Positions 18,436 to 55,901 of a stretch of DNA of 64,000 bases are shown here, piece by piece. The notes below the pieces were generated by a model, which was not told where the DNA came from, made no database searches, and worked only from the letters and a program-made list of their open reading frames with translations. Each line of letters starts with the position of its first letter. Positions within the stretch are counted from its first letter, which is position 1. The stretch lies in the sequence record JX128258; one strand, given 5' to 3'. Position numbers and translations under genes: made by a program. The DNA comes from Escherichia phage ECML-117.

Positions 18436-19854
18436 ATGCGAATGCAAACGGCACGCGAAATTGACAAAAATGGATTCTTGACGATTGTGGGTTGTCCCAT
18501 TTCGTCATTTGGCATTTTTGATTATTCTGCAGGTCAGGTTGGACTTGATGGTGATCCGAATCGCATCGTAAAAGTTTATCGCCCAGAGTCAGCGGTGAAA
18601 GACCCCGAAGCGATAGATTCATTCAAAAATATCCCTTTCATCGACAATCACGAAATGCTTTCTGGATTCGAAGGTGATGAGGATAACACAGCACCCGAAG
18701 AGTATGGCGTTGATGGCGTTCTAACTGGCAATGTTTATTATGACAAGCCATGGATGCGCGGCGACCTTAAAGTTTTTAGCCGTCGTCTGAAGAAGGCCAT
18801 CGACTCTGGAAAGGTTGACTTGTCTTTGGGCTATGACTGTGAATTCATCATACAGTCTGGAGAGTTTGACGGGCAGCCGTATGAAGTGGTACAGACAACT
18901 CTTCGCGGCAACCACATTGCTCTCGTGGACGTTGGTCGAGTACCAGGTGCACGGGTGCTGGATGGTCGTTGCTTTGACCATCTTTGTTTGACGACTGTAA
19001 CACCATCCAACGAGGATTTAGACATGCCAAAACCGTTAAAAGGTAAAGCGCGTGATAATGCTGTTGAACAGCTGAAATCACTGATCCCTGCGCTCGAACA
19101 ATTTCTGAATGAAGAGAGCACCGAAGCTGCTCATCAGGACGAAGTTGAAGTGAAAGCAGAAGAGAAGGATTCAACCGAAGAACGTGAAGAAGTGATGGTT
19201 GATCCAGAAGTCAAAGCAGAAGCTGAAGAGACTCCAGAAGGTGAAGAGAAGTTTGAATTTGAAACTGAATCTCACGCTGGCGGCGAGCTTCCGCAACTGA
19301 TCAGCCAAATCGAAGCACTTATTGCAAAACTGAAAGGTGGCGCGGTAGGTGATGAAGAAGAAGTTGAAGCCGAAGTCAAAGACGAAGAAGTTGAAGTCAA
19401 GGCTGAAGATGTATCACCTTGCGACAAAGCTGAAGATGTGGTTAGCGGCCTGCAAAACAGCAACGTAAAGGGGGCTTCGGTCGAAAAAGATGACAAACCG
19501 ACAAAAGCGGCGAAAGCGTCGCCAGGTCCAGCAAAAGGGGAACACTCAATGGCATCTGATTCAGCAGTTGCTGCTTTCTACGCTGATTCTGCTCGTAAGA
19601 ATAGCCTCTACCAGCGCCTGTCTAAAGTTGTTGGTGCCTTTGATCATGCAACTATGGACTCCAAGTCCGTAGCGAAATATGGCGCTAAAAAGTTAGGCTT
19701 GAAGTGCGTTGATGGTGCTGAGTTTGACGTGGTGGATAATTATCTGCGCGGCGTTGAACACGGTCAAAAACAGCGTGTAGTCGCAAAACAAAAGGCCGCT
19801 GCGGATTCTGCAGCAACTGACGAAGCGTTTGAAGCTTGGTTGAAAGGGGAATAA
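18436..19854 (+). CDS. prohead protease/scaffold-like protein with acidic C-terminal region
   Basis: 472 aa; Glu-rich low-complexity C-terminal half typical of scaffolds; sits before the major capsid gene. Confidence 0.45.
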   Translation: MRMQTAREIDKNGFLTIVGCPISSFGIFDYSAGQVGLDGDPNRIVKVYRPESAVKDPEAIDSFKNIPFIDNHEMLSGFEGDEDNTAPEEYGVDGVLTGNVYYDKPWMRGDLKVFSRRLKKAIDSGKVDLSLGYDCEFIIQSGEFDGQPYEVVQTTLRGNHIALVDVGRVPGARVLDGRCFDHLCLTTVTPSNEDLDMPKPLKGKARDNAVEQLKSLIPALEQFLNEESTEAAHQDEVEVKAEEKDSTEEREEVMVDPEVKAEAEETPEGEEKFEFETESHAGGELPQLISQIEALIAKLKGGAVGDEEEVEAEVKDEEVEVKAEDVSPCDKAEDVVSGLQNSNVKGASVEKDDKPTKAAKASPGPAKGEHSMASDSAVAAFYADSARKNSLYQRLSKVVGAFDHATMDSKSVAKYGAKKLGLKCVDGAEFDVVDNYLRGVEHGQKQRVVAKQKAAADSAATDEAFEAWLKGE

Positions 19855-19856
19855 AC

Positions 19857-20474
19857 ATGACTTTCCAAACTAGTGTAGGCCGTCAATATACAACTGGCTT
19901 TCCTGGCGACATCGTTCGCGACGGCCCACAGCGTGGGAAGCCAGGCCGAATTGCCAACGCTAACGAAGGCGCAAACGTAAACGCCATCAGCCGTGTGTTC
20001 GGTTTTAAGACTGACGTATCCTTAATGGGTACTGGTCAAACCAAAACTTTGGGCGCGCAGGACTTTGAAGTTGAGCTGGGCGGCACTAACTACTACGGCA
20101 TCCTCGGCAATAGCAAGCGTTACGCGCTGTATGGCAACTCTACTGGTCCTTTGGGTGCCAGCATGGTTCTGCCTCAATATAGCGAAGGCGAGTTCTATGA
20201 TATGTGCACGGGCCTCGTAGTTGAAGTATTCAACCCAAGCACCAGTCCGCAGACGCTTAACTATGGCGACCTGCTTGCTTATGTACCTAAAGGCATTTCC
20301 AGCGGTAACAACCCGAACAACTTGCCTATTGGTGCAATTATCGCCTATACTGGCTCATTGCCAACTGGCATGGTTGCCATCCCAGGCGGTATTGTGATTG
20401 ACCCGACGACTATTGCCCTTTCCGGCCCAAGCGTCCAGTCTTCCACTTATACCATTGTACAATTGACTCGTTAA
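19857..20474 (+). CDS. head protein (205 aa), possible decoration/auxiliary capsid protein
   Basis: Internal ATG 19857 with AAAGGGGA RBS; lies between scaffold and major capsid genes. Confidence 0.4.
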   Translation: MTFQTSVGRQYTTGFPGDIVRDGPQRGKPGRIANANEGANVNAISRVFGFKTDVSLMGTGQTKTLGAQDFEVELGGTNYYGILGNSKRYALYGNSTGPLGASMVLPQYSEGEFYDMCTGLVVEVFNPSTSPQTLNYGDLLAYVPKGISSGNNPNNLPIGAIIAYTGSLPTGMVAIPGGIVIDPTTIALSGPSVQSSTYTIVQLTR

Positions 20475-20488
20475 TAGGCAGGTGAATA

Positions 20489-21628
20489 ATGACTCGCATT
20501 AGCCAAACACACTCTCGCCTCCCAGCGAGCAAGGTGCGCCCTTTTGATATGCAATCCGTGACCGACGCGGCTGTTTCCCAGCTTGCGCGTATCGGTATTG
20601 TGTTTGATTCCGCGATTGTGCGTGATCAGATTGAGCACTTAAACCGTGCAGGCGCTTTCCGCGTAGGTGACGCCGCATTTACTGCGCCGCAAACCACGCC
20701 ATCAATCCCGACCCCGCTGCAGTTCCTGCAACAGTGGCTGCCTGGCTTCGTCAAAATCATGACCGCTGCCCGTAAAATTGACGAGCTGGTTGGTATTGAC
20801 ACCGTTGGTCAGTGGGAAGATGCAGAAATCGTTCAGGGCATCGTTGAACCAGCTGGCACCGCAGTTGAATATGGTGATTTCACCTCTATTCCTCTGGCAA
20901 GCTGGAACGTGAACTTTGAACGCCGTTCCATCGTTCGCGGTGAAATGGGCATGGCAGTCGGCATGCTGGAAGAAGGCCGCGCGTCTGCGATGCGTCTGAA
21001 CTCTGCAGAGACCAAGCGCCAGCAGGCTGCTGTATCTCTGGAAATCATGCGTAACGCAATCGGCTTCTATGGTTGGTATAACGGGAACAACCGCACGTTC
21101 GGCTTCCTGAATGATCCAAACCTGCCAGCGGCAATGACTTCAAACACCACTTCCGGCTGGGCTACTGCGACCTTCCAACAGGTGACTGCAGACATCCGTT
21201 TGATGGTTCGTCAAATCCGTGTCAACTCTCAGGACCAGATTGATCCAGAGAAGGTTGATATGACTCTGGCGCTGCCGACCAACTCTATTGATTGGCTGTC
21301 AAACACCACCGACTTCGGTATTTCTGTACGTGACTGGATCACCCAGACTTATCCGAAGATGAAGATCAAATCTGCACCGGAACTCAACGGCGCACTTGGC
21401 AGTGACCCGACTTTCCTGAACGTGGCATATCTGTACGCTGATCACATCGATTCCTCAATTGATGGCTCAAGCGATGATGGTTCCGTATTCAGTCAGCTGG
21501 TCCAGACTAAGTTTATGACTCTGGGCGTTGAGAAACGCGCTAAGAGCTACGTTGAAGACTACGCAAACGCAACAGCAGGCGTTCTGCTCAAGCGTCCTTT
21601 CGCAGTCGTCCGTATGACTGGTATCTAA
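20489..21628 (+). CDS. major capsid protein
   Basis: 379 aa, canonical position after protease/scaffold; followed by a strong stem-loop. Confidence 0.6.
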
Positions 21629-40957: not shown

Positions 40958-41932
40958 TTAAAAATACTCCATATCGGTAATATCACGGAAGCACTTATAC
41001 AAGGCAGAGCGCGGCACGTCAACGATGCCAAAGTTAAAGAATTTATATGTCAGATATTTGTTGCGATAGTTCTCGCGATTCTCCCAAAGCATTTTTCTCT
41101 CTGCCATAGGCATTGAACCAGCGGAGACGCGGAAAGGAATCATTTCGCCTTTCTCATCAACATATTTTGGATTGACAACCACAAATGATCCAAGGTATCC
41201 TTTCGCAACTAAGCCTTCAGCCTCTTTCGAACGCTTAGTGCGACCCAACTCATCAATGAATGCCTCGTTGTTGTTCTCCATCATCTCAACGAAGTCTATG
41301 ATCAATCCTTCTTCATCGGTCCACGGCTTGTCCTTCCACACATCACGTGACTTTGGCGTCGCGCGGCCATGCTTGTATTTGCCCGTCCAAGACTTGCCAT
41401 ACAAGCCTTCATAGCCAAGCTGGTCTGCTTCGATTTGCATTGCCGCGTACTGTTCCATATTTTCGATGTTTCGATATTCGAGAGCGCGAAGGAATGGGCG
41501 TCGACCATGGTTGATGAGGTGCTGATTGACTTCAGCAACTCTAGCGCGATAGTTTGCATAACGCTTTTCAAAAGGCAAATCAGGGTCGCTGAAGTCATCA
41601 AACACCCACCATGTAAAGTTAGTGATTGCATCAGTATTCATGCAGGCTGTATAGGCTTGCTGCATGACGTTCTTGTCGTTCGGATTGCCGTCAATAAGCT
41701 CTCCATCAAGGCCATGAATCAATTCACCCAAAAAGAGGAACTCTTTTTTGATTTGAATGTTGCGCAGAGCCATGCCGGACGTGCCCATTGGCAAGTTGTC
41801 ATACGCCATCGCGCGTATGCCATCGACCTTGAAGGACAACCCGCAAGGCAGCGGCACATCTTCGCCGCGCTCGATAATTTGCTTACGCTGGCAACCCTTC
41901 ATTGGTTTTAATGCTTTGATTTCCCCTGCCAT
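40958..41932 (-). CDS. ATP-dependent nucleic-acid ligase
   Basis: 324 aa with nucleotidyltransferase motif I KVDGIR (KxDG). Confidence 0.55.
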   Translation of the reverse strand: MAGEIKALKPMKGCQRKQIIERGEDVPLPCGLSFKVDGIRAMAYDNLPMGTSGMALRNIQIKKEFLFLGELIHGLDGELIDGNPNDKNVMQQAYTACMNTDAITNFTWWVFDDFSDPDLPFEKRYANYRARVAEVNQHLINHGRRPFLRALEYRNIENMEQYAAMQIEADQLGYEGLYGKSWTGKYKHGRATPKSRDVWKDKPWTDEEGLIIDFVEMMENNNEAFIDELGRTKRSKEAEGLVAKGYLGSFVVVNPKYVDEKGEMIPFRVSAGSMPMAERKMLWENRENYRNKYLTYKFFNFGIVDVPRSALYKCFRDITDMEYF

Positions 41933-42525
41933 TATTCGCGACCCTCATTCATTACTTGTTCCATTGCGTAGGCATAAGCCTGATCAGTCGATTTGATGAA
42001 CGTGCCGTTGTACATCACCCCTTTACGGTCCTTGATGTCTTCATAGGCGGCTTGAGCGCAATCAGAAAGTCGAAGTCCATAATCATGCGCTACGCCGGAA
42101 AGATAATCCACAGCGGCCATGATGGTGACATCAATATCCATGCTCTGATTTTTAGCAATGGCGTCGCCAAGTCGTCCGAGCGTCTTTGCCAAGCGAAGGA
42201 TAAAGGAATGAGGGTGAGCGCCTTTGTCAGCGCAACCGCCGCCGTTAATGTCTTCGATTTTTGCGCCATTTTGCGCGGCAAGAATAGTTAACACAACAAG
42301 GCAATCGCCGATGTCGTCCTTGATGGCGGCTTGTAAATCACAGATGGCCTGCTCTGTATATCCGATTTCAGGGTCAAAGAACACAAGGTCATGTAATTGA
42401 TCAACGTGGTCGGTCAACTCCCCAAACTCGCTAATAAGCTTCGGGTATTGGTCTTTAAGGCCGCAACCTTTGATGATGTTACGGTCAGAAGCCCACTGGC
42501 GAATGTTTGCATAAATCTGGTTCAT
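41932..42525 (-). CDS. MazG-like nucleotide pyrophosphohydrolase
   Basis: 197 aa all-alpha with EFGELTDH and acidic metal-binding motifs. Confidence 0.5.
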   Translation of the reverse strand: MNQIYANIRQWASDRNIIKGCGLKDQYPKLISEFGELTDHVDQLHDLVFFDPEIGYTEQAICDLQAAIKDDIGDCLVVLTILAAQNGAKIEDINGGGCADKGAHPHSFILRLAKTLGRLGDAIAKNQSMDIDVTIMAAVDYLSGVAHDYGLRLSDCAQAAYEDIKDRKGVMYNGTFIKSTDQAYAYAMEQVMNEGRE

Positions 42526-46433: not shown

Positions 46434-46852
46434 GACAATTCCTCTAAATACTTGATGATGTGGTGAATAGTTCCCTTCACGATTATCTCACGTTGAACGT
46501 CTGCAATATTATAACGCTTTAATTCAATCGAAGGGTGGACTAAATAAAACATCTTCTCAGAATCGACTTTAAGCAAAACAAATGATGGGTATTTCCAATC
46601 ATTCCACGAAGAAAGAAAGCTGCACTGACCTTTCTCAAATGCATTTCTGAAAGGTGCAGTGGTGGCCCTTGCAGGCCACGATTCAAAGAACTTCATTTCA
46701 AGCCAAAAGCCGCGCCCTTTCCGGTTGGTGCCGATTACGTCCGGCACGCCATCACCCGTCATCGATTCGATTCGTTGAAGCTTCAATATTGATTCTGAAT
46801 GTTTCTTCAAAGGAACGAAAATGTATTTTTGTTCACGGTTATTTGTTGCCAT
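46430..46852 (-). CDS. VRR-NUC-like nuclease
   Basis: 140 aa with PD-(D/E)xK-like GVPDVIG...WLEMK; overlaps the SNF2 start, a common pairing. Confidence 0.5.
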   Translation of the reverse strand: MATNNREQKYIFVPLKKHSESILKLQRIESMTGDGVPDVIGTNRKGRGFWLEMKFFESWPARATTAPFRNAFEKGQCSFLSSWNDWKYPSFVLLKVDSEKMFYLVHPSIELKRYNIADVQREIIVKGTIHHIIKYLEELS

Positions 46853-49736
46853 CTGGATACACCTGTTTGATCACGTCGACGATAAACATGTCAATGCCTT
46901 CAAGCTTGCGGCCTTTCATCAGGAAGAATGCACCGTTCCCAACGTTCTCTGCGATGTATTTCCCGTACTTCTGGAACTTCTCTGGGCGAATCCTGAAGCG
47001 CATTGGCGAGTCTGTCGAATCATCCTTGCACATAAGGTCGATGAACTGGGTCTCAATCTTGTTTCCAAACTTATCCTTATCCGCATAGCGGCCATCAGCT
47101 TGAAGACCCTTTTTAAGTTTGCCGTGCTTTGTATAAATGCCGCGCTCAAGACGTTTACGGATGCGTGTTGCTTCGTTTTCATCTGCCAGCACTTTCTTGG
47201 TCAACTTGCCGATTACTATTGCACGCTCGTCATCGCCGACTTCCTTCATCTGGCGTATTGAAGCACCGGAAGTAACGCCAATCAGATATGGGTCATTATA
47301 CGCCCAACCGAACTTGGTGTGCATCTCTGTAAGGTCGCCGTATTTGACTTCAGCATTTGCCAATGCGTCCTTTTGTTTTTGCGTTAAGGTTCCGGCTTCA
47401 CGTGCTTCGATGTACTTCATCGCCTTCACCATTCCGTACCCTTTAGCGTTCATTATGCCGCCAATTAGCTTTCCGTTAGCGATGGTCCAGTTCATTGAAG
47501 AGTGATCAGGGTCGATTGGCACATAATCCACGCCTTCCTTCGCAAGTTCACGTAATATCGCAATCGTCTGGTCTTCGTCCTTAGCAGCGCGTAAGCAAGC
47601 AGCAGCAAATTCCAACGGGTAGTGTCGTTTAAGCCACAAGGTCCAGTAGGTCACGACCGCGTATGACACGGAGTGTGACTTGTTAAAGCCCCATGACCCG
47701 AACGTCGCCATCGCCTGCCAAAGCTTTCTTGCATCCGCTTCCGGTACGCCGTTATTTATTGCGCCTGCAACGAAGTCTTCGCCAAGCTTGTTAAAGTATT
47801 CCTCACCCTTACGACCTGACATCGCCTTACGTACAGCGGATGTTTTCGCCCAGTCAAATGAACCAATCTCTTTAACCACGGCCATGATTTGCTCTTGGTA
47901 AAGAAACACGCCGTAAGTCTCTTTTAAGTACGGCTCAAGTTGCGGTACGTCGTACTCAATCGGCGCACGTCCTGCCGCGCGTTCAATGTATTTCTGGGCC
48001 ATACCGGACGACAACGGGCCAGGTCGGCCAAGTGCTGTCAGGTTATCGATTTTGTTAAAGTTATCAACGTGCACAAAGTTGGTCACTGAGCGTACAGCGT
48101 CGCCTTCAAACTGGAAGATGCCTGACATCTTGTTTTCGTTAAGGATGTCAAGGACGCTTTGGTCATCAAGCTTGATTCCGTACAGCGTTTCAGCATCTAT
48201 CACACCAGTATCAGAAATGATTCCGAGGGTACGAAGACCCAATGCATCAAGCTTCAAAAGGTTAAGGTATTCGCTGTCAGGCTTATCAATTTGCGCAATC
48301 CCTTCCGCCGTCACTGTACAGTAATCAGAGATTGGGTCATTACACACGATGATTCCCGCTGCGTGAACGCCAGTGTGGGAAGGGTGAATCTCAAGGTCAC
48401 CCATGCATCGCGCGGCATCGGGATATTTAGCCACAAACTCTTGGCCCGTGGTCGTTGTTGCAAAGGTATCCTCCAGGCCGTGACCATAACGGGCGTCACC
48501 AGATGAGTATTCAAGCAATGCGTTTTTAATGTTGGCCGTTTCGTGATATCCAATGTTGAATTTCTTACCAACTTGAGCCATTACTGAGTTGGCCTTAAGC
48601 GTGTTGATGTTGCCAAGCTTTGCAACGTTCATTTCGCCGTATTTTTCTTTAAGGTAATCAAACACCATATAGCGTTTGGTATCCTCAAAGTCAATATCAA
48701 TATCAGGAAGGTCGGCGCGGCTTACGTCGATGAATCGGGCGAACAGCAGCTTATACGGGATTGGGTCAACTTCCGTGATGCCGAGGCAATAACAAACCAG
48801 TGAACCAGCCGATGAGCCGCGAGCGGGTCCGACGAGCATTTTTGTTTTTGCAAATCGTACAAGGTCCGCTACCACCAGAAAGTATGAGTCGAAATCTTTC
48901 AGCTGAATCTGGTGAATCTCTTCGTTGAATCGGTCCTCATATTCCTGAGTCCATTCTTTGATGTGACCTGCCTTAAGGCGGTACTCCATACCCTCACGAG
49001 CAAGCTTTACCATGTCACCAGCAAGGTGGATAATCGGTGCCTTGCGCAGCTTCAGGTCAAGTCCCACGATTCCGTTTGCAATATCAACCGCATTGGCAGT
49101 TGCTTGATTCAACTCATCTTCGGTCAGGATTCCTTTAAGCTGTTTGCGCAAGTCTTCCGCGTCAACAATGCAGTGCGGCTTGACCGTGTCGCGAACTTCC
49201 CAAGCATAAGCAAAGTCAACGTGCTCAGGTGAAGGCATGTGGTTGTATCCGGTTAAAACCAGCGGCCTTCCGTTGCTGCGGTGAGCCAATACCTGGCGCT
49301 TGGCCAAAAGGAACGATGATGGGTTGACGTCTATATAATCGTAGTCCTCTGGCCGCAGCAACTCCACGGCACCGCCACAGAATTTAACGACTCCATCGAG
49401 CGCCCCGAACTCTGCACGGGTCAGTCCGCCGCGTTGTGTTGCAAGCGTGGTCGCGTTGTAAAAGGACTTCAGGTCAAGCGCCAATATCCAAGCCTTCGGT
49501 TTGAATCCATTTTTCGGGTCCGCATCAGGGTCGATGATTGGAATTTCCATGCCGAACATAGGCTTGATATCATTCTTCTGACATTCCTTTTCCCAGCGAA
49601 CGTGACCCCATGTATTATTATCAACTAATGCCGCGACTTCGCAGCCCAACTCTTTGAGCCGTGCTATAATTTCAGGATGCCGTCCATATACTTCTTTGAA
49701 CGTGTAACCGCTGCGAACTCTCAATTGTGGAAACAT
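46839..49736 (-). CDS. dnaE: DNA polymerase III alpha subunit homologue (DnaE-type, with PHP domain)
   Basis: 965 aa; N-terminal PHP-type region; LLKLDALGLRTL palm motif and overall C-family polymerase organisation. Confidence 0.8.
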   Translation of the reverse strand: MFPQLRVRSGYTFKEVYGRHPEIIARLKELGCEVAALVDNNTWGHVRWEKECQKNDIKPMFGMEIPIIDPDADPKNGFKPKAWILALDLKSFYNATTLATQRGGLTRAEFGALDGVVKFCGGAVELLRPEDYDYIDVNPSSFLLAKRQVLAHRSNGRPLVLTGYNHMPSPEHVDFAYAWEVRDTVKPHCIVDAEDLRKQLKGILTEDELNQATANAVDIANGIVGLDLKLRKAPIIHLAGDMVKLAREGMEYRLKAGHIKEWTQEYEDRFNEEIHQIQLKDFDSYFLVVADLVRFAKTKMLVGPARGSSAGSLVCYCLGITEVDPIPYKLLFARFIDVSRADLPDIDIDFEDTKRYMVFDYLKEKYGEMNVAKLGNINTLKANSVMAQVGKKFNIGYHETANIKNALLEYSSGDARYGHGLEDTFATTTTGQEFVAKYPDAARCMGDLEIHPSHTGVHAAGIIVCNDPISDYCTVTAEGIAQIDKPDSEYLNLLKLDALGLRTLGIISDTGVIDAETLYGIKLDDQSVLDILNENKMSGIFQFEGDAVRSVTNFVHVDNFNKIDNLTALGRPGPLSSGMAQKYIERAAGRAPIEYDVPQLEPYLKETYGVFLYQEQIMAVVKEIGSFDWAKTSAVRKAMSGRKGEEYFNKLGEDFVAGAINNGVPEADARKLWQAMATFGSWGFNKSHSVSYAVVTYWTLWLKRHYPLEFAAACLRAAKDEDQTIAILRELAKEGVDYVPIDPDHSSMNWTIANGKLIGGIMNAKGYGMVKAMKYIEAREAGTLTQKQKDALANAEVKYGDLTEMHTKFGWAYNDPYLIGVTSGASIRQMKEVGDDERAIVIGKLTKKVLADENEATRIRKRLERGIYTKHGKLKKGLQADGRYADKDKFGNKIETQFIDLMCKDDSTDSPMRFRIRPEKFQKYGKYIAENVGNGAFFLMKGRKLEGIDMFIVDVIKQVYPDGNK

Positions 49737-50278
49737 TATTTACTCCATATGTCATATACGCCAATTTGTTGGCAGACTTTGTGCAGTAATATTACGTCGT
49801 CTAATGCACGGTGCTTCTGTTCATATTTTCCGAAATATAATTCATACAGCTCTTGAAGCTTAACTCTTCGGCCAAAAATAGGCAAGGTTTGCTCGACTGT
49901 ACAAATGTTTATTTCTGGAAAATTAACATCACCAAGTGTAAGACCTTCGCGCTGTAATGCATAGTCAAGAATGTTTTTATCAAACGCATGGTTGTGCGCG
50001 ATAGTTGCATCCGTCTTCTTGAAGATTTCTTTTAGTTGCGGAACGAAATGGATGAAGGGTGGATTACACTCAAGGTCTTCGTTGGTTAATCCGGTAATCT
50101 TTGTGATGATTTCTTCAATCACAATTTCAGGATTAATTATGAACTCGAACGTTTCAAGAATCTCTTTGCCGTCCGTCAGCAGTCCTGCAAATTCAATAGG
50201 GCGCGGCTGCATTCCAAGCGGCGCTTTCGGGTGCACGGTTAATCCGGTTGTTTCGAAGTCATAAGGGAGAAATAACAC
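49736..50278 (-). CDS. DnaQ-like 3'-5' exonuclease
   Basis: Exo motifs DFETTG, HNHAFD, HRALDD; AGGAGG RBS; coupled to the polymerase gene. Confidence 0.75.
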   Translation of the reverse strand: MLFLPYDFETTGLTVHPKAPLGMQPRPIEFAGLLTDGKEILETFEFIINPEIVIEEIITKITGLTNEDLECNPPFIHFVPQLKEIFKKTDATIAHNHAFDKNILDYALQREGLTLGDVNFPEINICTVEQTLPIFGRRVKLQELYELYFGKYEQKHRALDDVILLHKVCQQIGVYDIWSK

Positions 50279-50332
50279 ATTGGCCTCCTACAAAAAGGCC
50301 GCCCATTAGGACGGCCACAGATTCACGATTCG

Positions 50333-50884
50333 TTATGCAGTGTACGGAGTACCGTCTTGATTCAAGCGCACGATAAACTTCAAATCAACGCCGATGATTT
50401 CACGCGTATCAAAGATCACATAGTTGTAACGACGCTGACCAGCAATATTTGGGTTGGTGTGAGAGTCGGTCACAACTTCCTGCGCAACCTGAATGCCTTC
50501 TTCTTTAAAGAACTTGCGCCATTCAGCAAGTTCAGCGGCAGTCACGTGCATACCAAGATGGCTAACCTGATTGTCGTGCGCATCGATGTATTCGATGTTT
50601 TCGTGAATCCAGTTGCAACCTTTTGTATAGTCAAGAATTTCAAGCTCAAGAGGCTTACCAGCGCCGCCATCGGTGCCGTTGCCAGCCTGATAGTTGAAGC
50701 GCAAGTCAGCTTCGTTGGTGCAATCGCCGCGCTGACCCTTAAAGACATCAGCTTCAAATACGCGACCAGTAGCAACAACGTGATCATGGAACCATTCTGT
50801 CAGGCCGATTTTAGCCAGGAAATTCTGTGCGCGCTGAGCACCTGGAATTGACAGGGCGATTTGTTCAATTTTAAAGTGTGGCAT
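50333..50884 (-). CDS. VOC/glyoxalase-fold-like protein (tentative)
   Basis: 183 aa with two beta-alpha-beta-beta-beta-like modules (FKIEQIAL...; SHLGMHV...); weak. Confidence 0.3.
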   Translation of the reverse strand: MPHFKIEQIALSIPGAQRAQNFLAKIGLTEWFHDHVVATGRVFEADVFKGQRGDCTNEADLRFNYQAGNGTDGGAGKPLELEILDYTKGCNWIHENIEYIDAHDNQVSHLGMHVTAAELAEWRKFFKEEGIQVAQEVVTDSHTNPNIAGQRRYNYVIFDTREIIGVDLKFIVRLNQDGTPYTA

Positions 50885-50980
50885 TTTGTTTCCTTAATTA
50901 AATATTATTGATTAATTACTGTGTTATCTTCGTCCTGTTTCTTTTCAGGAGCGGGTGTGACAACTTCAAATGTTCGTGAT

Positions 50981-51664
50981 TTATTTCCCAAATGGAATAT
51001 CAGTACCAGACATAAAACGCCATGCGCCCGTAATTAAGATATGGCGAATGAAGTCAGCAATTACTTGCGGCTCAGTCTCCAATCCATTCATCAACGCCTT
51101 TTTCTGGTATTCAGCAGCATACTCAGGAGTCCAGCCGCGAGTCGCGCAAACAGCATCTTCAATCTGTTTGGACATACCAGTGCCGCGCAACTTGTTAGGA
51201 CTAATAGAAAATACCGTGATCCCGTATTTAGGCGTAAGCTCGTGAGCCATCTGCTTGCTAATCATGAGCGCAGCAGCCTTGGAAGCATTATAACACAAGC
51301 TGGACGTCATAGGAATATGCGCAGCGTTGGAAACGATATTGATCACAAAACCTTTGTTGTCGATAAGACTTTTCAGCGCGGCTTGAGTCGTGTTGACGAA
51401 AGAGAAGGCGTTGGTGTGCATAACGCGATTGAACTCTTCGTAGTTAACATCTTCAAACCAGTTGTTGGAGTTGACGCCAGCACAGTTGATCAAGCCTTCT
51501 ACATCATATGGGCTTAAAATTTCTTTCATCTGTTTCGCGTCGCGGACGTCATATCCGTATGCTGAATCGATTCCAAGCACGTTATGACCGTAAGCGCCAA
51601 GGGTGTCAAAAATAGATTTACCAAGACCGGAATTGGAACCTGTTACAACAATTACTTTTTTCAT
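50981..51664 (-). CDS. short-chain dehydrogenase/reductase (classical SDR)
   Basis: N-terminal VTGSNSGLGKS cofactor motif and catalytic YNASK (YxxxK). Confidence 0.7.
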   Translation of the reverse strand: MKKVIVVTGSNSGLGKSIFDTLGAYGHNVLGIDSAYGYDVRDAKQMKEILSPYDVEGLINCAGVNSNNWFEDVNYEEFNRVMHTNAFSFVNTTQAALKSLIDNKGFVINIVSNAAHIPMTSSLCYNASKAAALMISKQMAHELTPKYGITVFSISPNKLRGTGMSKQIEDAVCATRGWTPEYAAEYQKKALMNGLETEPQVIADFIRHILITGAWRFMSGTDIPFGK

Positions 51665-51729
51665 TTATTTATCCTTTTTGGACTTCGTTTCGATGAGATA
51701 AATATAACTCATCGAAACGCACAAGTAAA

Positions 51730-52602
51730 CTATTTATTGAAATTAATATTGTGGGTGTTGACGAGACGTTCACACATGGCGCTGTAAACACCATCGTCGT
51801 GTATAGAGTCTTCGTGCTTCAGGCCGCTGATTGCAAAGCGTGTAAGCTTGACAATCTTAAGCTCGAACAGATGCCACATGTGGTAGTCTTCCGGCGTTTT
51901 CAACGTTACGCCATTAGGGAAAAGCACCTGCATAACCTGGCCAACCATCACGGCATTATCGCCATAGACAGCGTTGCGCTCACGGAAGGTTGCTGCCATT
52001 GCATCAAGAATATCGGCGGCAGTTGCCGGAGATTGTTCAACTTCCACAGTCTTAGTCTCTTCTTGTCCTGTTGCGCTTGGATCAATTGCTAATTGTTGCA
52101 CCACTTCACCTGCCTTGCAAAGATTAAATGTAAAAGCGATTTTATTTTGAGCAACGGAATTATAATACAATGCTTCATCTTGCATCCGCGCGAGCACGTC
52201 TTGTCGGTCGTCGAATACATTGATGATTCGATAATCGCCGTGCCGCAATGCGTGCGATAGCCATGCAGATTTCATAATAGTTGATGGACGTTTGTCGCCA
52301 TAGTCTCTCATCTTGATTGTAAATTCATCAAAAGGAAAAACATTGTCCAGACGTTCAAAAGTCACTTGTCTGTATTTTTCTGGCCTTGCAGTCCAATATT
52401 CAACCGCCTCACCGCGAAGAGATGCCGACTCTACTGCTGATGCAATGCGAGGATAGAACTGATCATAACCAATACCGCTGTGATAGTCATCATAGTCTGA
52501 CAACGGACCTGCCACCTTTATGCGGTCCAAGCGCCAACGGTCATCAAACAGCGTTCCGTCAAGGTCGAATACGTTTAATATTTGGTTATTTTTAATACTC
52601 AT
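51730..52602 (-). CDS. HAD-superfamily phosphatase/nucleotidase with extra C-terminal domain
   Basis: Motif I FDLDGTLFD near the N-terminus; additional ~110-aa C-terminal domain of unknown type. Confidence 0.55.
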   Translation of the reverse strand: MSIKNNQILNVFDLDGTLFDDRWRLDRIKVAGPLSDYDDYHSGIGYDQFYPRIASAVESASLRGEAVEYWTARPEKYRQVTFERLDNVFPFDEFTIKMRDYGDKRPSTIMKSAWLSHALRHGDYRIINVFDDRQDVLARMQDEALYYNSVAQNKIAFTFNLCKAGEVVQQLAIDPSATGQEETKTVEVEQSPATAADILDAMAATFRERNAVYGDNAVMVGQVMQVLFPNGVTLKTPEDYHMWHLFELKIVKLTRFAISGLKHEDSIHDDGVYSAMCERLVNTHNINFNK

Positions 52603-53402
52603 CCCTTTGACACTCCATCTTTAGCAACTGGATTGTTGGTGATTGGCGCGGCATCCCAAAACTGGATGCGCAACTCTTCTTGCTGTGCCGTGGTATCCAT
52701 CCAATCACGATACCAAGGGCAATGGGCTTTGCCATGACGAGGAAACGCGCATTTACCCATACCGATGCATTGCGGCTGTAGTAAAGGATTAGCCCACGGG
52801 TGCACCTTGAGGACTTCCGCAACCATTGCGCGAAATACTTCTTGATACTCGCCTTGGGTGCGCGTGCACAAGCGGTTGGAAGCCATCTGTTGCAGCGTGC
52901 GCAAGTTGAACTTTGCCATGATATGCGTTTGCATATTAGAAGGCAACACGGCACGTGCATCTTGAATCTCTGCGCCAGCCGCGCGAAGTTCTTGGTATAG
53001 GGCGTCAATGGTCGCCATTGCATCATCCCAGGTGTTAGCCAACTTCAAACGCTGCTCGTCGATTCTCTCGCCGATAACCCTGTCAGGGTCGTCATACTCA
53101 AACGCTTTCGGACGAATCGCATCAAACGCAGAAGACTCCTGAGCGCGGCTGGTGCGTTCTTGATATGCGCCTGTGCGTGTGCGTACCATCTGATGGGTCA
53201 TGTTCTTTGATACATCTGTGATATCAAAAATATAGTCCACAAAGTCAAAAGGTGACTTGATTGTATCGAGCATGTAGCGCCAATGCTCTTGCTTCTCTGA
53301 TTCCGTCATCTCAGAGACAGGCTTACCAGTCATGCGCGTGTTCTTTGTTTCCAGCAAAAGGTCAAGTGCATCTTGGGTGTATCGAATTAATTCAACTTTC
53401 AT
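52599..53402 (-). CDS. ThyX-like (flavin-dependent thymidylate synthase family) protein, divergent
   Basis: VRTRTGAYQERTSR aligns to the ThyX RHRxxSxxxxSxRY motif with His replaced by Thr; NLRTLQQM...EYQE resembles the ThyX NARSLxNL...E motif; extra Cys-rich C-terminus. Confidence 0.45.
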   Translation of the reverse strand: MKVELIRYTQDALDLLLETKNTRMTGKPVSEMTESEKQEHWRYMLDTIKSPFDFVDYIFDITDVSKNMTHQMVRTRTGAYQERTSRAQESSAFDAIRPKAFEYDDPDRVIGERIDEQRLKLANTWDDAMATIDALYQELRAAGAEIQDARAVLPSNMQTHIMAKFNLRTLQQMASNRLCTRTQGEYQEVFRAMVAEVLKVHPWANPLLQPQCIGMGKCAFPRHGKAHCPWYRDWMDTTAQQEELRIQFWDAAPITNNPVAKDGVSKG

Positions 53403-53415
53403 TTTAATTATCCTA

Positions 53416-53862
53416 TTAACGGTAATTCACTAGTTGCTGATCACCAGAGAAGGTGCAATGATAAACGAATTGTGCGTTATAAAGCAACTGAAAACTTTTC
53501 TTTGGTTCACTATTAGCACTCATCGATGTGAATACTTCTGCACCGGAACGGTTTTCACCGATTAAGTTGACAAAGCCGCCAGTTGTGCGAGGTTGAACGA
53601 AAGTGAAGCGTTGCATCCACGGAGTCCGGTTGGCACCTTTACCTGTGAATCCTTGAATCTGAATATTCAGACCTTCTTGCTCGTTCACACCGATGTAAGT
53701 GGTAATCTTTGCACCAGTCGTTGCTGCGGTCTTCCCGTCCATCGCTTCGCAATCGTAAACAGCGATTGAATCGGAAGTGCGGATGGCAGCTTCAGTCGCT
53801 TCCATATACATGGTGCCGAGAATAGCAGTTGCGGCAAGCGCGATTCCAGTGATTCGTTTCAT
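53416..53862 (-). CDS. secreted protein (148 aa)
   Basis: N-terminal signal peptide (ITGIALAATAILGTMYMEATEAA). Confidence 0.45.
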   Translation of the reverse strand: MKRITGIALAATAILGTMYMEATEAAIRTSDSIAVYDCEAMDGKTAATTGAKITTYIGVNEQEGLNIQIQGFTGKGANRTPWMQRFTFVQPRTTGGFVNLIGENRSGAEVFTSMSANSEPKKSFQLLYNAQFVYHCTFSGDQQLVNYR

Positions 53863-53927
53863 TTTCGTTTCCTCTATGAGTTCTGCTTCAATGATTAAAG
53901 TATACGCCCATTGAAGCAGAAAGCAAA

Positions 53928-54923
53928 TTATTTATTAGCAATATAAGCAAATTTTTGATAGTTATTTGCTTTGATGAGTTTTTCGACTTCAACAAGGTCA
54001 TGAGCGACGTCATCAAGCAAAATGTTTCGCCAGGTAGCGAATCTACCGACACTAAAAACGTTCAAATCCATAGTCAGCTGCAGGAGTAGGGCGTGTCGCA
54101 AGTCTTTCGGAATGTCGACAATCTTGCCATATTTCTGGTCGACCTTTTCAACTTCTTCAAGAGCGATATCACTCCATGAAAGGCCAAATGCCGTCAACAC
54201 TTCGTCGACTTCTGCGCGAAGCTTCATGTCACGGTAACGAGTGATGCCTCCAGCGGCTTCAACTGCAGCTTCACTTACGCTGACTAAAGGAATTGTTTCA
54301 ATGATAAGCGTGTCACCAGTAATTGATGCGCGGTAAGTTCTGACGGAGTAGTCAGGGAAGTAAATTGTCTGATACAAATCACACTTACGTTTAATCTTAA
54401 AGCGGTAAACGCGAATGTTTGCTTTATCAAATGAAAAATCAAGCTTTTGATCAATTCCAGCAAGCTTCATCATGACTGGCAGCGGCGACGTGTTGATGAT
54501 TGGCGTCTCGCTATAGCCGCAAAGAGTATCAACAGGAGTATTAAAGAATATGCGGTCACCCAGTTTGTCGACAAGCTGATCATAAAAGTCATCAGGCGCA
54601 ATATAACGCGTTGCAGTCTTAAGCTTCATGATTGAACGGCTGCCAAACTGATTGGTGACCTTCATGGAATACATATTGGCAAGGTTAATTGGGCAATGGT
54701 CATGGTAGTAGTTGCCGCGAAAATACACAGCCTTGTCAACTGTCACGGCCTTAAAGGGGATTCCGGTAATACGGCTTACTTCTTCGCCACGGAAGCGTAG
54801 CAATGCCTTGTGCTGTTGCGCTCGTTCCCCTGCTTCGTACACAACAGAGTTCGGGAAGTGACACGCTGTGATAAGTCCTGCCAGTCCGCCGCCGATAATC
54901 ATTACAGGTTGTTTCATGTTCAT
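53928..54923 (-). CDS. FAD/NAD(P)-binding flavoprotein oxidoreductase
   Basis: N-terminal dinucleotide-binding motif VMIIGGGLAGL; C-terminal GRFATWRN resembles the GR(L/F)A motif of UDP-galactopyranose-mutase-like enzymes (tentative). Confidence 0.5.
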   Translation of the reverse strand: MNMKQPVMIIGGGLAGLITACHFPNSVVYEAGERAQQHKALLRFRGEEVSRITGIPFKAVTVDKAVYFRGNYYHDHCPINLANMYSMKVTNQFGSRSIMKLKTATRYIAPDDFYDQLVDKLGDRIFFNTPVDTLCGYSETPIINTSPLPVMMKLAGIDQKLDFSFDKANIRVYRFKIKRKCDLYQTIYFPDYSVRTYRASITGDTLIIETIPLVSVSEAAVEAAGGITRYRDMKLRAEVDEVLTAFGLSWSDIALEEVEKVDQKYGKIVDIPKDLRHALLLQLTMDLNVFSVGRFATWRNILLDDVAHDLVEVEKLIKANNYQKFAYIANK

Positions 54924-55055
54924 TTGTCCTTTGTGGGTGATATGAGAAGTATAATAGCTAAATTATTTTACAGCAACAAGTCATTTTATTTAGTACAGAT
55001 GAAAAAAGACCCACAACAAGTGTGGGTCAATTACCGCTGCATAACCGTCCTAAGG

Positions 55056-55901
55056 TTATTCCGCTTGATCACCGTCTTCGGCATCGTCGTTGGATTCAAC
55101 ATCGACAAACTCGATGTGACCCATCTCTTCCAGCTTGCTCAGGTAGGAGCGAACGGAAGCGCCAAACAGTTGATCTTTAACTTTTTCGCCCAGCTCATCG
55201 ATAGACTGCGCCACGCCAACTTCGCCTTCTTTGATCGCCGCCAGAACGCGTCCACGGGTGGAGTGCTCTTGCGGCTGGCTCAGGCCATTGCCAGTGTAGA
55301 TGAAGTGAGTAGCTTTTGCACGACGCTGACCGTTTGCCTTTTTAGCGGCCTTACGTTCTGCGATGGCTTTGCGACGTTCTTCAGCTTCTTTCTTACGCTG
55401 TTCTTTCTGCTGTTCTGCAGCTTCTTTCGCCGCAATCTTAGCAGCTTCACGCTCTGCCTTGCGTTTCGCTTTAGCTTCTTCTTTAGCCTTCTCTTTTTCG
55501 GCCTTCGCTGCAGCACGGGCTTGATCACGCTCTGCTTTCTTAGCAGCAGCTTGCTCAGCTTTCAGACGCTTGGCTTCTTCTTTAGCCTTCGCCTTTTCGA
55601 TTTCTTTTGCTGCTTTAGCGGCTTCACGCTCTGCCTTCTTAGCAGCAGCCTTTTCTGCACGCTCTTTGGCTTTCTTCGCTGCTTCTTCAGCACGTTTCTG
55701 AGCCTTCTCATCAGCAGCCTGCTTACGTTTCAGTGCAGCTTCTTCACGCTTGGCTTGTTTTTCCTGCTCACGCTTTTGGCGTTTTTCTTCGGCTTCTTTC
55801 TTTTTAGCCAGGCGTTTTTCTTCAGCCACGCGACGACGTTCTGCTGCAGCTGCTTGTTTTTCTTCTTTAGATAATACTTTGATTGCTTCGGCCATGTTCA
55901 C
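55056..55901 (-). CDS. Lys/Ala/Glu-rich coiled-coil protein with C-terminal globular domain
   Basis: About 190 aa of AEEKR/AKKA low-complexity repeats, then a ~80-aa non-repetitive acidic C-terminus; DNA shows internal tandem repeats. Confidence 0.55.
   Translation of the reverse strand: MNMAEAIKVLSKEEKQAAAAERRRVAEEKRLAKKKEAEEKRQKREQEKQAKREEAALKRKQAADEKAQKRAEEAAKKAKERAEKAAAKKAEREAAKAAKEIEKAKAKEEAKRLKAEQAAAKKAERDQARAAAKAEKEKAKEEAKAKRKAEREAAKIAAKEAAEQQKEQRKKEAEERRKAIAERKAAKKANGQRRAKATHFIYTGNGLSQPQEHSTRGRVLAAIKEGEVGVAQSIDELGEKVKDQLFGASVRSYLSKLEEMGHIEFVDVESNDDAEDGDQAE

Follow-up and report, generated by a model that had tools for sequence, protein, structure and literature searches.

Five genes on the minus strand of the window (the whole 64,000-nucleotide stretch analysed) may form a polymerase-coupled module that makes a hypermodified thymidine, bearing a sugar or polyol, for the phage's own DNA, a reading to which we give about an even chance. 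A sixth gene lying among them, g5, would be an unrelated insertion. The genes and their surroundings are as follows.

Lys-rich protein: 55056-55901, upstream flank of the six genes
Upstream terminator-like hairpin: 55008..55028, minus strand, GACCCACA..TGTGGGTC then a T-run, in the gap that separates g6 from the Lys-rich gene
g6: 53928-54923, minus strand, 331 aa, FAD-type flavoprotein
g5: 53416-53862, minus strand, 148 aa, protein with a signal-like N-terminus
g4: 52599-53402, minus strand, 267 aa, divergent ThyX-like flavoenzyme, extended at the C-terminus by a segment with four cysteines
g3: 51730-52602, minus strand, 290 aa, HAD phosphatase with a C-terminal four-helix bundle
g3 N-terminal domain: 52108..52602, minus strand, HAD-superfamily phosphatase of the PNKP-phosphatase type
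g3 C-terminal domain: 51733..52020, minus strand, predicted four-helix bundle, highly conserved
g2: 50981-51664, minus strand, 227 aa, classical SDR
g1: 50333-50884, minus strand, 183 aa, VOC (glyoxalase/dioxygenase) superfamily
Downstream terminator-like hairpin: 50297..50316, minus strand, GGCCGTCC..GGGCGGCC then TTTTT, directly past g1
DnaQ-like (RNase_T) proofreading exonuclease: 49736-50278, minus strand, downstream flank of the six genes
DnaE-type PolIII-alpha: 46839-49736, minus strand, genetically linked context

The original prediction placed six co-directional genes of these families between the DnaQ-like exonuclease and the Lys-rich protein, and the ORF reading of the window bears this out, with all six ORFs found on the minus strand within 50333-54923 and both flanks in place. 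The start of g3 overlaps the stop of g4 by 4 bp. The two hairpins are the predicted upstream and downstream limits of a six-gene transcription unit, and terminators are annotated at matching places for both in the record of phage Mansfield. The source phage of the window is an E. coli Wifcevirus.

The module keeps a single gene order in all 52 informative IMG/VR loci: flavoprotein, ThyX-like, HAD, (SDR, VOC), DnaQ, and PolIII-alpha, the last two lying downstream of the module in unchanged order in every locus. The SDR and VOC genes are both present in 34 of these loci and both missing in 16. Homologs of g6 and the ThyX-like enzyme invariably co-occur in module loci, and in Cronobacter phage Ss1 they are translationally coupled. 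The SDR, the VOC protein, the helical domain, and the ThyX-like enzyme also adjoin DnaE-type polymerases in actinophages: Microbacterium phage Sparcetus has a flavoprotein, HAD, SDR, VOC, and helical protein next to DnaE, plus a ThyX-like gene, and mycobacteriophage Gumball has a similar set. An hhalign comparison of the actinophage flavoprotein with g6 aligned the GxGxxG motif alone and did not establish homology. When actinophage segments were compared with the window, homologs were detectable for PolIII-alpha and the module genes and for no other window protein. Module phages infect hosts as different as Pseudomonas, Xanthomonas, Mycobacterium, and Microbacterium. Judged by gene content and order, the module is an ancient, widely conserved companion of DnaE-type phage polymerases across phages of Proteobacteria and Actinobacteria, rather than the compact local island first proposed.

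The proposed synteny search thus recovered the gene set in other phages as five genes and not six, and the ancestral module, as these loci portray it, consists of g6, g4, g3, g2, and g1. Homologs of g5 were confined to Wifcevirus in tblastn (27 of 27 records) and absent from the metagenomic module loci (0/52). The N-terminus of g5 (K2, R3, a hydrophobic core, then ATEA-A) is a signal-like segment, and family searches with g5 gave no match. We consider g5 to be probably a Wifcevirus-specific insertion outside the pathway.

g4 matches Pfam Thy1 over the full profile (6.7e-30, 104.7 bits), scores 81.4 against the NCBIfam thyX equivalog (cutoff 87.9), and matches PDB ThyX at no better than 1e-5 in a sequence search and 1e-11 in a profile search. 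In T. maritima ThyX numbering, Q75, R78, R80, R90, R147, N163, R165, and R174 are kept, and the changes are H53I, H59F, H79T, S88T, Y91A, and H178R, which turn the RHR motif into RTR. Clade-wide in the ThyX-like family are H53I, H79T, S88T, and Y91A, together with retention of R78, R80, R90, R147, and R174. The claim of an altered substrate motif therefore holds for the residues, but not for nucleotide binding: the aligned dUMP-binding arginines are retained, and the alterations lie on the flavin/folate/carbinolamine side. His53 stacks the folate in T. maritima ThyX structures. In true ThyX, Tyr91 and Ser88 are 'strictly conserved' and critical, Tyr91 assists carbinolamine chemistry, and the reduced flavin reacts directly with an aldehyde in a formaldehyde shunt (PMC8316439). 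The 60-residue C-terminal extension of g4 carries four cysteines (C179, C212, C218, and C228) that covary in the family alignment, all four or none being present. They align with four cysteines of mycobacteriophage Gumball gp70, and the motif is conserved as far as actinophages.

Given its good Thy1 score, g4 could simply make dTMP, which counts against the modification reading. It would then be a working flavin-dependent thymidylate synthase feeding replication, g3 would act as a nucleotidase or as a DNA-repair 3'-phosphatase of the PNKP type, and g6, g2, and g1 would be auxiliary metabolic genes that take no part in DNA chemistry, with the Pbunavirus modification described below arising from other anonymous genes. 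We regard this as doubtful but worth weighing, as g4 matches the full Thy1 profile and has all the dUMP-binding arginines, every public annotation names it thymidylate synthase, HAD_PNKP-type phosphatases are frequent in phages, and these genomes still hold many hypothetical proteins. The loss of Y91 and H53 and the sub-cutoff equivalog score argue otherwise, as do the collinearity of five genes in 52/52 loci and the joint gain or loss of SDR and VOC. Conservation of the module genes and PolIII-alpha alone between the window and the actinophage segments examined would also be hard to explain for unrelated passengers.

g6 carries GxGxxG and E30, and its AF2 model (pLDDT 85) has a GR2-type FAD fold. 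By this model, g6 is of the UGM/PPOX/amine-oxidase fold class, the closest fold being UGM, whose flavin forms a covalent N5-sugar adduct. The family is large and phage-only, is covered by no Pfam or NCBIfam model, and has many invariant Arg/Lys; the pI is 8.5 in the window protein and 5.9 in that of the Pbunavirus F8. A second dinucleotide-binding domain is absent from the g6 model.

The Mansfield annotators named the g6 homolog UDP-galactopyranose mutase, which would suit cell-envelope sugar chemistry: the host O-antigen/LPS would be remodelled, for example in superinfection exclusion, by g6 as a UGM-like mutase together with the SDR, g3 as a HAD phosphatase of sugar phosphates, and the secreted g5. 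The O-antigen is the Wifcevirus receptor, and g5 has a putative signal peptide. However, g6 failed to match Pfam GLF at a threshold as loose as E<=10, and no glycosyltransferase, flippase, or polymerase genes for such chemistry were found among the window ORFs. The module also sits inside the replication operon and is kept in phages whose hosts have unrelated envelopes, and g5 is missing everywhere outside Wifcevirus, so that we find this explanation scarcely credible.

The constant pairing of g6 with the ThyX-like enzyme, coupled as they are in phage Ss1, could also reflect cofactor support. In this case g6 would be a flavin reductase or electron donor for ThyX, possibly feeding the four-Cys site as a redox centre, the SDR would be a pteridine/dihydrofolate-type reductase like FolM, PTR1, and DHPR, and the HAD and VOC proteins would act on folate/flavin precursors, all for faster dTMP synthesis. 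Several pterin reductases are indeed SDRs, but a reductase would be superfluous, as ThyX yields THF instead of DHF. Since g6 also lacks the second dinucleotide-binding domain, the helical domain and VOC protein get no role, and the published T hypermodification of core-module phages is left without genes, we consider cofactor support very unlikely.

The remaining profile searches largely agree with the families first proposed: adh_short, Thy1, and HAD_PNKP were matched and VOC was reached through family members, but g5 and g6 were assigned to none. Residues 11-142 of g3 match HAD_PNKP at 8e-8, g3 matches phrog_4889 at 2e-122, and its HAD motifs are intact and conserved (DLDGT for DxDGT, TARP, K, and DDRxD). 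Modelling folds the extra C-terminal domain into a four-helix bundle, and its homolog in Microbacterium phages is a stand-alone protein. HAD_PNKP-type phosphatases are common in phages. g2 matches adh_short at 2.6e-31 and has the SDR motif residues by direct reading (TGxxxGxG at 8-15, N85, S112, Y125, and K129), with D33 after beta-2 suggesting a preference for NAD(H). It met no NCBIfam cutoff, and its best PDB matches are FabG-like at around 1e-12. Homologs of g2 occupy the equivalent position in Xanthomonas, Serratia, and Pantoea phages and adjoin PolIII-alpha in Gordonia, Mycobacterium, and Microbacterium phages. The window g1 protein alone matches Pfam Glyoxalase_4 weakly (E=0.09), and 10 of 13 family members match it (best 7.5e-6). 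Candidate g1 ligands, invariant in the family alignment, are Q8, E80/E82, H109/H113, and H142, and g1 is 34% identical to Sparcetus gp58.

Pbunavirus, the sister genus, shares with the window the core of flavoprotein (about 40% identity for g6), ThyX-like enzyme (about 50%), and HAD-helical protein. In Pbunaviruses F8 and 14-1, about a quarter of T is replaced by a hypermodified thymidine that carries a sugar or polyol/sugar-alcohol moiety and occurs in TG context, with nucleoside masses by LC-MS of 362 Da (F8) and 390 Da (14-1) and no biosynthetic genes assigned (Yee et al., 2025 preprint, PMC12191111). The two are therapeutic Pseudomonas phages closely related to the source phage of the window. 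The F8 annotation (1-57000 of 66015 bp) lists no enzyme-like genes outside replication other than those for ThyX, HAD, the g6 homolog, and a MazG-like protein. On gene content, the module is the best candidate for making this modified thymidine, and we infer the link between the Pbunavirus modification and the window module. The original prediction of a modified-nucleotide pathway therefore points in the right direction, as phages sharing the core have hypermodified thymidine and the ThyX-like enzyme has lost critical residues, but its tie between genes and modification did not gain support. Since neither the SDR nor the VOC gene occurs in Pbunaviruses, the Wifcevirus product, if any, should differ chemically.

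In the thymidine hypermodification that we favor, the ThyX-like enzyme would activate C5 of dUMP as true ThyX does, and its reduced flavin would react with an aldose or aldose-phosphate in place of the folate-derived one-carbon unit. The formaldehyde shunt of ThyX via an N5-carbinolamine and the flavin N5-sugar adduct of UGM would be precedents for this step. Reduction would then give a 5-(polyhydroxyalkyl)-dUMP (dU 228 + pentose 150 + 2H - H2O = 362), and ring closure with no reduction would give a C-glycoside (dU 228 + hexose 180 - H2O = 390). An O-linked alternative would fit the masses equally well (5-hmdU 258 + erythritol 122 - 18 = 362; 258 + pentose 150 - 18 = 390). The UGM-fold g6 may supply or open the sugar, and the g3 phosphatase may strip its distal phosphate. 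In Wifcevirus-type phages, SDR and VOC would tailor the side chain further by redox or isomerisation, and the dedicated polymerase would incorporate the product. No dNMP kinase able to raise a bulky dUMP derivative to the triphosphate was found among the window ORFs, which weighs against this scheme.

The TG context in F8 suggests that an enzyme reads the sequence at the DNA level, which counts against the module reading; the module has no obvious sequence-reading candidate, and by pI comparison no module enzyme is notably basic. Together with the replacement of about 25%, this specificity would suit post-replicative oxidative coupling, in which g4 just supplies dTMP, g6 takes a hydride from the T 5-methyl in TG context to give an exocyclic methylene, a sugar/polyol hydroxyl adds, and the PNKP-type HAD dephosphorylates the DNA-bound sugar phosphate. 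The masses fit (T 242 + erythritol 122 - 2H = 362; T + pentose 150 - 2H = 390), the HAD domain belongs with polynucleotide phosphatases, and g6, with its many invariant Arg/Lys, resembles in fold the PPOX/amine oxidases that dehydrogenate activated C-H bonds. Nevertheless, a DNA-binding domain or sequence-reading module was not detected, the basic pI of g6 in the window is not shared by F8, and the ThyX active-site remodelling, the four-Cys motif, and the linkage to a polymerase rather than a DNA-binding protein are left unexplained. We consider this route unlikely.

Restriction phenotypes bear on the module reading as well. Wifceviruses withstand most restriction systems tested (EcoRI, EcoRV, and type I/III) "without known protection", with EOP about 0.3-1 on EcoRI, EcoRV, EcoCFT_I, and EcoCFT_II hosts, and the window holds 17 GAATTC and 9 GATATC sites. 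EcoRI cuts F8 DNA (PMC12191111), so the phenotypes are not the same as the in vivo EcoRI resistance of Wifceviruses, which counts against the module reading. TG-containing GC-rich palindromes escape avoidance in the window (O/E 0.79), F8 (1.06), Sparcetus (1.01), and 27 module loci (0.87), and in the controls T7, lambda, and phiKMV these palindromes are avoided (0.19-0.69). The within-genome ratio of TG to non-TG is 2.1 in the window (Fisher p 0.027) and 1.2-2.1 in controls, so the contrast is suggestive only. Because 21 six-bp palindromes are extremely avoided in the window, a large share of the genome acts like DNA that lacks protection, and this counts against the module reading. So does the infectivity of yeast-cloned, unmodified JG024 DNA.

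Among known systems, PurZ-DpoZ (2-aminoadenine) is a precursor-modifying pathway inherited with a dedicated replicative polymerase. The window module, linked to DnaE/DnaQ, has the same genetic logic, but the enzymes are unrelated, the base is different, and replacement is complete there and partial here. A sugar or polyol on a pyrimidine C5 substituent in DNA is found in base J, T4 glucosyl-hmC, RB69 arabinosyl-hmC, and SP-15 5-(4',5'-dihydroxypentyl)uracil, the last coming nearest in chemistry to a C-linked polyol chain. The understood sugar-bearing systems use hydroxymethylases or JBP-type oxygenases with glycosyltransferases, none of which was found in the window. For g6, UDP-galactopyranose mutase (Glf/UGM) and the PPOX/amine-oxidase flavoproteins are among the closest known systems. 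F8 and 14-1, myoviruses of the sister genus, share the replication module and enzyme core, and their sugar-bearing thymidine could plausibly come from a flavoprotein with the UGM fold, a phosphatase of the sugar-phosphate type, and a ThyX-like enzyme that activates C5; they differ in SDR/VOC content and EcoRI sensitivity. The pathways of M6, ViI, PaMx11, SP10, and PhiW-14 likewise replace T partially with a C5-methyl-substituted derivative, cluster tailoring enzymes with replication genes (including a flavoenzyme in PaMx11), and serve restriction protection (PMC8989533). They rely on a dUMP hydroxymethylase of the ThyA family, a P-loop kinase for 5-hmdU DNA, and amino-acid:DNA transferases of the aGPT-Pplase type (PMC8989533), none of which was found among the Pfam-scanned window ORFs; the C5 enzyme in the window is of the ThyX family, and the proposed appended group is sugar-derived, theirs coming from an amino acid or polyamine. 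With ThyX itself (PMC8316439), g4 shares the fold, the full-length Thy1 match, the dUMP-binding/polarising arginines, and a presumed FAD cofactor, and it differs in RTR for RHR, Thr for Ser88, Ala for Tyr91, Ile for His53, the sub-cutoff score, the extension with four covarying cysteines, and a constant partner flavoprotein.

The interval 50333-54923 is filled by six minus-strand ORFs, which confirms the original prediction of six co-directional genes between a DnaQ-like exonuclease and a Lys-rich protein. From the exonuclease side, they encode a VOC-like protein, an SDR, a HAD protein with a C-terminal helical domain, a ThyX-like protein, a secreted protein, and a flavoprotein. The region is shared at 92-97% nucleotide identity with 27 Wifcevirus genomes (E. 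coli/Shigella myoviruses, e.g. WFH, WFC, Mansfield, and Bas98-101). The features around the six genes are the following:

46839-49736, PolIII-alpha, adjoining the DnaQ-like exonuclease
49736-50278, DnaQ-like RNase_T exonuclease, flanking the six genes and followed by PolIII-alpha
50316-50297, minus strand, terminator-like hairpin just past the VOC-like gene (a terminator is annotated at the same place in Mansfield)
55028-55008, minus strand, terminator-like hairpin upstream of the flavoprotein gene (a terminator is annotated at the same place in Mansfield)
55056-55901, Lys-rich protein, the flank on the flavoprotein side

The 96-bp spacer between the VOC-like and SDR genes (50885-50980) lacks a small ORF of the relatives (Mansfield_067, 71 aa; Bas99_0047, 56 aa), and megablast alignments to several relatives are fragmented because of this missing ORF. 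The Lys-rich protein (55056-55901), also rich in Ala and Glu, has 281 aa and a pI of 9.6, and it is kept in Pbunavirus and Xanthomonas phages, where its homologs are annotated 'putative structural protein'. A plus-strand ORF of 354 aa (54810-55874) overlaps its gene and looks like a low-complexity antisense artefact.

The predicted domain assignments hold. Public records label the six genes as hypothetical, FabG-like reductase, polynucleotide kinase/phosphorylase, and thymidylate synthase, and the Mansfield record adds UDP-galactopyranose mutase (UGM) and glyoxylase-family protein. Labels of this kind ('thymidylate synthase', 'FabG-like reductase', 'polynucleotide kinase/phosphorylase', and 'UDP-galactopyranose mutase') are best read as describing the fold and nothing more. 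The SDR is a classical one (adh_short, 2.6e-31), with TGxxxGxG at T8-G15 and the tetrad N85, S112, Y125, and K129; we rejected FabG (3-oxoacyl-ACP reductase) as its identity, as the highest-scoring NCBIfam FabG models reach 59-75 bits and their cutoffs are 222-298. The HAD protein matches Pfam HAD_PNKP with 33.0 bits (cutoff 27.6), and the four HAD motifs (D13xD15GT, TARP, K, and DDRxD) are conserved in its family alignment. Its C-terminal domain is better conserved than the HAD part and is modelled as a four-helix bundle (pLDDT 88), for which a structure search returned no specific structural relative; a PDB sequence search with the protein found nothing. We also rejected a polynucleotide kinase/phosphatase, given this bundle as the C-terminal half and no detectable P-loop kinase domain. 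The VOC-like protein alone reaches 13.5 bits against the Pfam Glyoxalase family, below the cutoff of 27, and 10 of 13 members of its family match Glyoxalase_4 (best 7.5e-6). Judged at the family level, it appears to be VOC-like; PDB searches with its sequence and with its family profile found nothing. The flavoprotein has no Pfam (GLF / NAD_binding_8) or NCBIfam match, even at E<=10, and no match in a PDB sequence search. Its predicted fold is UGM-like with an FAD-binding Rossmann domain, and its structural relatives in BFVD Foldseek include mycobacteriophage 'oxidoreductases' of ~260 aa. The best-known member of the UGM fold forms a flavin N5-sugar adduct.

With tblastn, 360 phage records contain the flavoprotein, and the clade of ThyX-like proteins that goes with it occurs in essentially the same set. 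The carriers are Pbunavirus, phages of Serratia, Pantoea, Erwinia, Xanthomonas, and Rhizobium, and one Cronobacter podovirus. In IMG/VR we counted 52 loci, each capturing both the flavoprotein and DnaQ/PolIII-alpha. The ThyX-like and HAD genes lie between these two in the same order at all 52 loci; SDR and VOC genes are present at 34, neither is found at 16, and the secreted protein is encoded at none. Xanthomonas phage XcP1 has the order flavoprotein, ThyX, HAD, SDR, VOC, DEDDh exonuclease, and PolIII-alpha. A search for the same gene set in other phages, proposed with the original prediction, is answered by a recurring five-gene set (XcP1 and the 34 IMG/VR loci). Pbunavirus has the core of flavoprotein, ThyX, and HAD-helical protein, and lacks SDR and VOC.

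The set also extends to actinophages. The Microbacterium phage Sparcetus carries, directly upstream of DnaE, a flavoprotein, a HAD protein, an SDR (35% identity to ours), a VOC protein (34%), and a stand-alone homolog of the C-terminal domain of our HAD protein (49%), and its ThyX-like gene lies downstream of DnaE. A comparable gene set is found in mycobacteriophage Gumball. When the 324 window ORFs of at least 50 aa were compared with the actinophage segments, matches were obtained for PolIII-alpha and the module genes only. The Sparcetus flavoprotein (gp55) aligned with ours in hhalign over the GxGxxG segment alone (probability 48%), and we treat the actinophage flavoproteins as analogous, not as proven homologs. 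In Sparcetus, the DnaE-like polymerase (17293-20790) is split into gp61 and gp63 with a 63-aa ORF between them, and a GT2-type membrane glycosyltransferase (gp65) comes next. Judged from sequence comparison, the module appears to be ancient rather than an island. The 'compact island' of the original prediction is not borne out, as the module is conserved from Pbunavirus to actinophages and keeps its order at every IMG/VR locus. The secreted protein (53416-53862), which has a signal-like N-terminus, has no detectable homologs beyond the 27 Wifcevirus genomes; being Wifcevirus-only and missing from the IMG/VR loci, it should be dropped as a pathway member. Its gene sits mid-way in the otherwise ancient operon, where Pbunaviruses have five unrelated small ORFs.

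The ThyX-like protein matches Pfam Thy1 with 104.7 bits (cutoff 24.8) over profile positions 2-191 of 191, and falls just under the NCBIfam TIGR02170 thyX equivalog cutoff (81.4 against 87.9 bits). Its matches to solved ThyX structures are no better than 1e-5 in the sequence search and 1e-11 in the profile search. The residues that bind or polarise dUMP in T. maritima ThyX (Q75, R78, R80, R90, R147, and R174) are kept and invariant in the clade; R78, R80, R90, R147, and R174 correspond to R74, R76, R86, R150, and R177 of the window protein, invariant in the clade alignment. The ThyX motif RHRxxxxxxxS and the Tyr after its second Arg (T. maritima H79, S88, and Y91) are absent from the window protein, which reads R74-T75-R76 ... 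T84-S85-R86-A87, a clade-wide pattern. Relative to T. maritima ThyX, H53 is replaced by Ile, H59 by Phe, H79 by Thr, S88 by Thr, Y91 by Ala, and H178 by Arg. The position of His53, the residue that stacks the folate in folate-bound T. maritima ThyX, is I48 in the window protein and invariant in the clade. The alternative that the SDR is a FolM/PTR1-type pterin reductase and the flavoprotein a ThyX reductase has a low probability. On the folate side, the residues of the ThyX-like protein are remodelled. According to Bou-Nader et al., Tyr91 and Ser88 of ThyX are strictly conserved and critical for activity, and are placed to help the hydroxyl of the flavin N5-carbinolamine depart (PMC8316439). 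The same study shows a direct reaction of the reduced ThyX flavin with formaldehyde as the aldehyde (PMC8316439).

The clade also has a C-terminal extension of ~60 residues with three Cys, which make four together with C179 of the core. These Cys (residues 179, 212, 218, and 228; RLC...QC-x5-C-x9-C) are all present or all absent across the clade, the window protein (52599-53402) contains no other Cys, and they align with four Cys of Gumball gp70 (hhalign probability 99.6%). This pattern suggests a metal site (Zn or Fe-S) that is not in canonical ThyX.

Phenotypes of relatives have been published. In virion DNA of the Pbunavirus phages F8 and 14-1, new nucleosides derived from thymidine, with masses of 362 and 390 Da, have been shown (PMC12191111, 2025 preprint), which replace ~1/4 of T in a TG context (PMC12191111). 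As for known modification genes, the authors stress that phages of this kind 'do not carry' them (PMC12191111), and our literature search found no paper linking Pbunavirus or Wifcevirus genes to modification. In the F8 annotation (1-57000 of 66015 bp), the enzyme-like genes beyond core replication are ThyX, HAD, the flavoprotein homolog, and a MazG-like gene only. The module proteins of F8 and 14-1 are 97% (flavoprotein), 94% (ThyX), and 81% (HAD) identical, and their substitutions show no informative clustering that would point to the determinant of 362 versus 390 Da. The most divergent F8/14-1 protein of the region is ORF070 (12894-14301 in the Pbunavirus sequences; 57% identity, 398 vs 434 aa), which is Cys-rich, coiled-coil-like, and on the opposite strand. 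A 197-aa window ORF at 41932-42525 has no Pfam match; at the matching position, Bas99 (0036) and F8 (gp049) have a 'MazG-like pyrophosphatase', common to Wifcevirus and Pbunavirus; an enzyme of this kind could adjust the dNTP pool in favour of a modified nucleotide.

Wifcevirus phages plate with an EOP of ~1 on EcoCFT_I, EcoRV, and EcoCFT_II, and of 0.27-0.9 on EcoRI (raw data of PMC11990801), with EcoP1_I as the exception to their restriction resistance (PMC11990801), which extends to most of the systems tested. The window contains 17 GAATTC and 9 GATATC sites. Bas98-101 give zero plaques on EcoP1_I (AGACC) hosts, yet their resistance to EcoCFT_II is complete and the two systems have similar numbers of sites; the sequence context in which a modification occurs may account for this selectivity. 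Taking comparative genomics, residue-level divergence, and these published phenotypes together, we regard the module as a strong candidate, not assigned before, for a pathway that hypermodifies thymidine with a sugar-derived group. The predicted non-canonical nucleotide or base-modification pathway is partly supported, in this five-gene form with the secreted protein removed. As Wifcevirus has SDR and VOC genes in addition, its product is probably distinct from the Pbunavirus product.

The core would unite an enzyme that renders C5 of dUMP nucleophilic and uses a flavin N5 adduct as carbon donor, a UGM-fold flavoprotein, and a sugar-phosphate-type phosphatase. In the simplest scheme that we infer, an 'aldose shunt', an aldose, or its phosphate, would first add to the reduced flavin. 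The resulting adduct would be attacked by C5 of dUMP, and release would follow with or without reduction. A reduced product would have a mass of 362 (dU 228 + pentose 150 + 2H - H2O) and a ring-closed one of 390 (dU 228 + hexose 180 - H2O). The HAD enzyme would take off the distal phosphate, the SDR and VOC proteins would tailor the chain in Wifcevirus-type phages, and the polymerase inherited with the module would build the product into DNA. On the most far-reaching reading, the ThyX-like clade would be a new kind of flavoenzyme. Its carbon donor would be a sugar aldehyde, which the UGM-fold partner delivers or opens, in place of the folate C1 unit, and a C-C bond would be formed from C5 of dUMP to C1 of a pentose or hexose. 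The products would be polyhydroxyalkyl or C-glycosyl deoxyuridylates (nucleosides of 362 and 390 Da), written into DNA by the DnaE-type polymerase. We consider this last reading unlikely. O-linked products of 5-hmdU or oxidised T fit the masses equally well (258 + 122 - 18 = 362; 258 + 150 - 18 = 390), and this equal fit is the basis of an alternative in which T is altered after replication, inside DNA, and the ThyX-like protein merely supplies dTMP. The TG specificity implies a sequence-reading step, probably at the DNA level, for which the module has no candidate. Further points against the proposal are that the module's enzymes are not basic, that no dNMP kinase was found among the Pfam-scanned window ORFs and in the Bas99 annotation, and that unmodified yeast-cloned DNA of JG024 can start infection. 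Another such point is that F8 DNA is cut by EcoRI (PMC12191111), unlike the Wifcevirus phenotype.

Palindrome usage in the window bears on the extent of protection. Of the 64 six-bp palindromes, 21 are strongly avoided and 16 are absent, including AGCGCT (0 vs 19 expected), CGATCG (0 vs 17), GGATCC (0 vs 10), GAGCTC, GCCGGC, CCGCGG, CGGCCG, CTCGAG, GCTAGC, and all four NCCGGN. GATC has an O/E of 0.4, and AAGCTT (48), TGATCA (49), and GTCGAC (30) occur at ~2x the expected number. This extreme avoidance counts against the proposal, as a large share of the genome evolves like DNA open to restriction. Taking the palindromes that have two A/T bases, we compared those containing TG/CA with the rest. 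The former have an O/E of 0.79 in the window (1 of 8 strongly avoided) and the latter 0.38 (11 of 16; Fisher p=0.027). The corresponding values are 1.06 vs 0.66 in F8, 1.01 vs 0.68 in Sparcetus, and 0.87 vs 0.58 in 27 pooled module loci, with controls at 0.19 vs 0.12 (T7), 0.69 vs 0.55 (lambda), and 0.52 vs 0.25 (phiKMV). The controls avoid TG-containing palindromes too, AA/TT-containing sites are spared in all genomes compared, and the within-genome TG/non-TG ratio of module phages overlaps that of the controls. The absolute sparing of TG sites fits TG-context protection and is suggestive only. Like the restriction resistance, it is an indirect sign of a non-canonical thymidine in virion DNA.

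Few Pseudomonas phages are used in therapy as much as the Pbunaviruses, and their DNA hypermodification is a recent finding without assigned genes. A concrete, testable gene set would open the pathway to knock-outs, reconstitution, and engineering. If the reading of the ThyX-like clade as C-C-forming enzymes is true, an ancient system common to phages of Proteobacteria and Actinobacteria would explain both Wifcevirus restriction resistance and the modification of therapeutic Pbunaviruses. The gene set would also flag phages by the hundreds, both cultured and metagenomic and with actinophages among them, as likely carriers of modified DNA. This bears on sequencing, cloning/rebooting, the prediction of host range, and defence systems, for example END nucleases, which target hypermodified DNA only. 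The module differs from known thymidine hypermodification systems of the 5-HMUDK / aGPT-Pplase type, whose hallmark genes were not found in the window scan. A Pfam scan of 26 window ORFs, among them the largest that are non-structural, detected no ThyA-family dUMP hydroxymethylase, P-loop 5-hmdU DNA kinase, or aGPT-Pplase, and no glycosyltransferase or TET/JBP hallmarks among the scanned ORFs; the Bas99 and F8 annotations list no ThyA/5-HMUDK/aGPT-Pplase-type genes. If the proposal is true, the DNA hypermodification repertoire would gain a route based on ThyX that has no relation to the known ThyA/kinase/transferase route.
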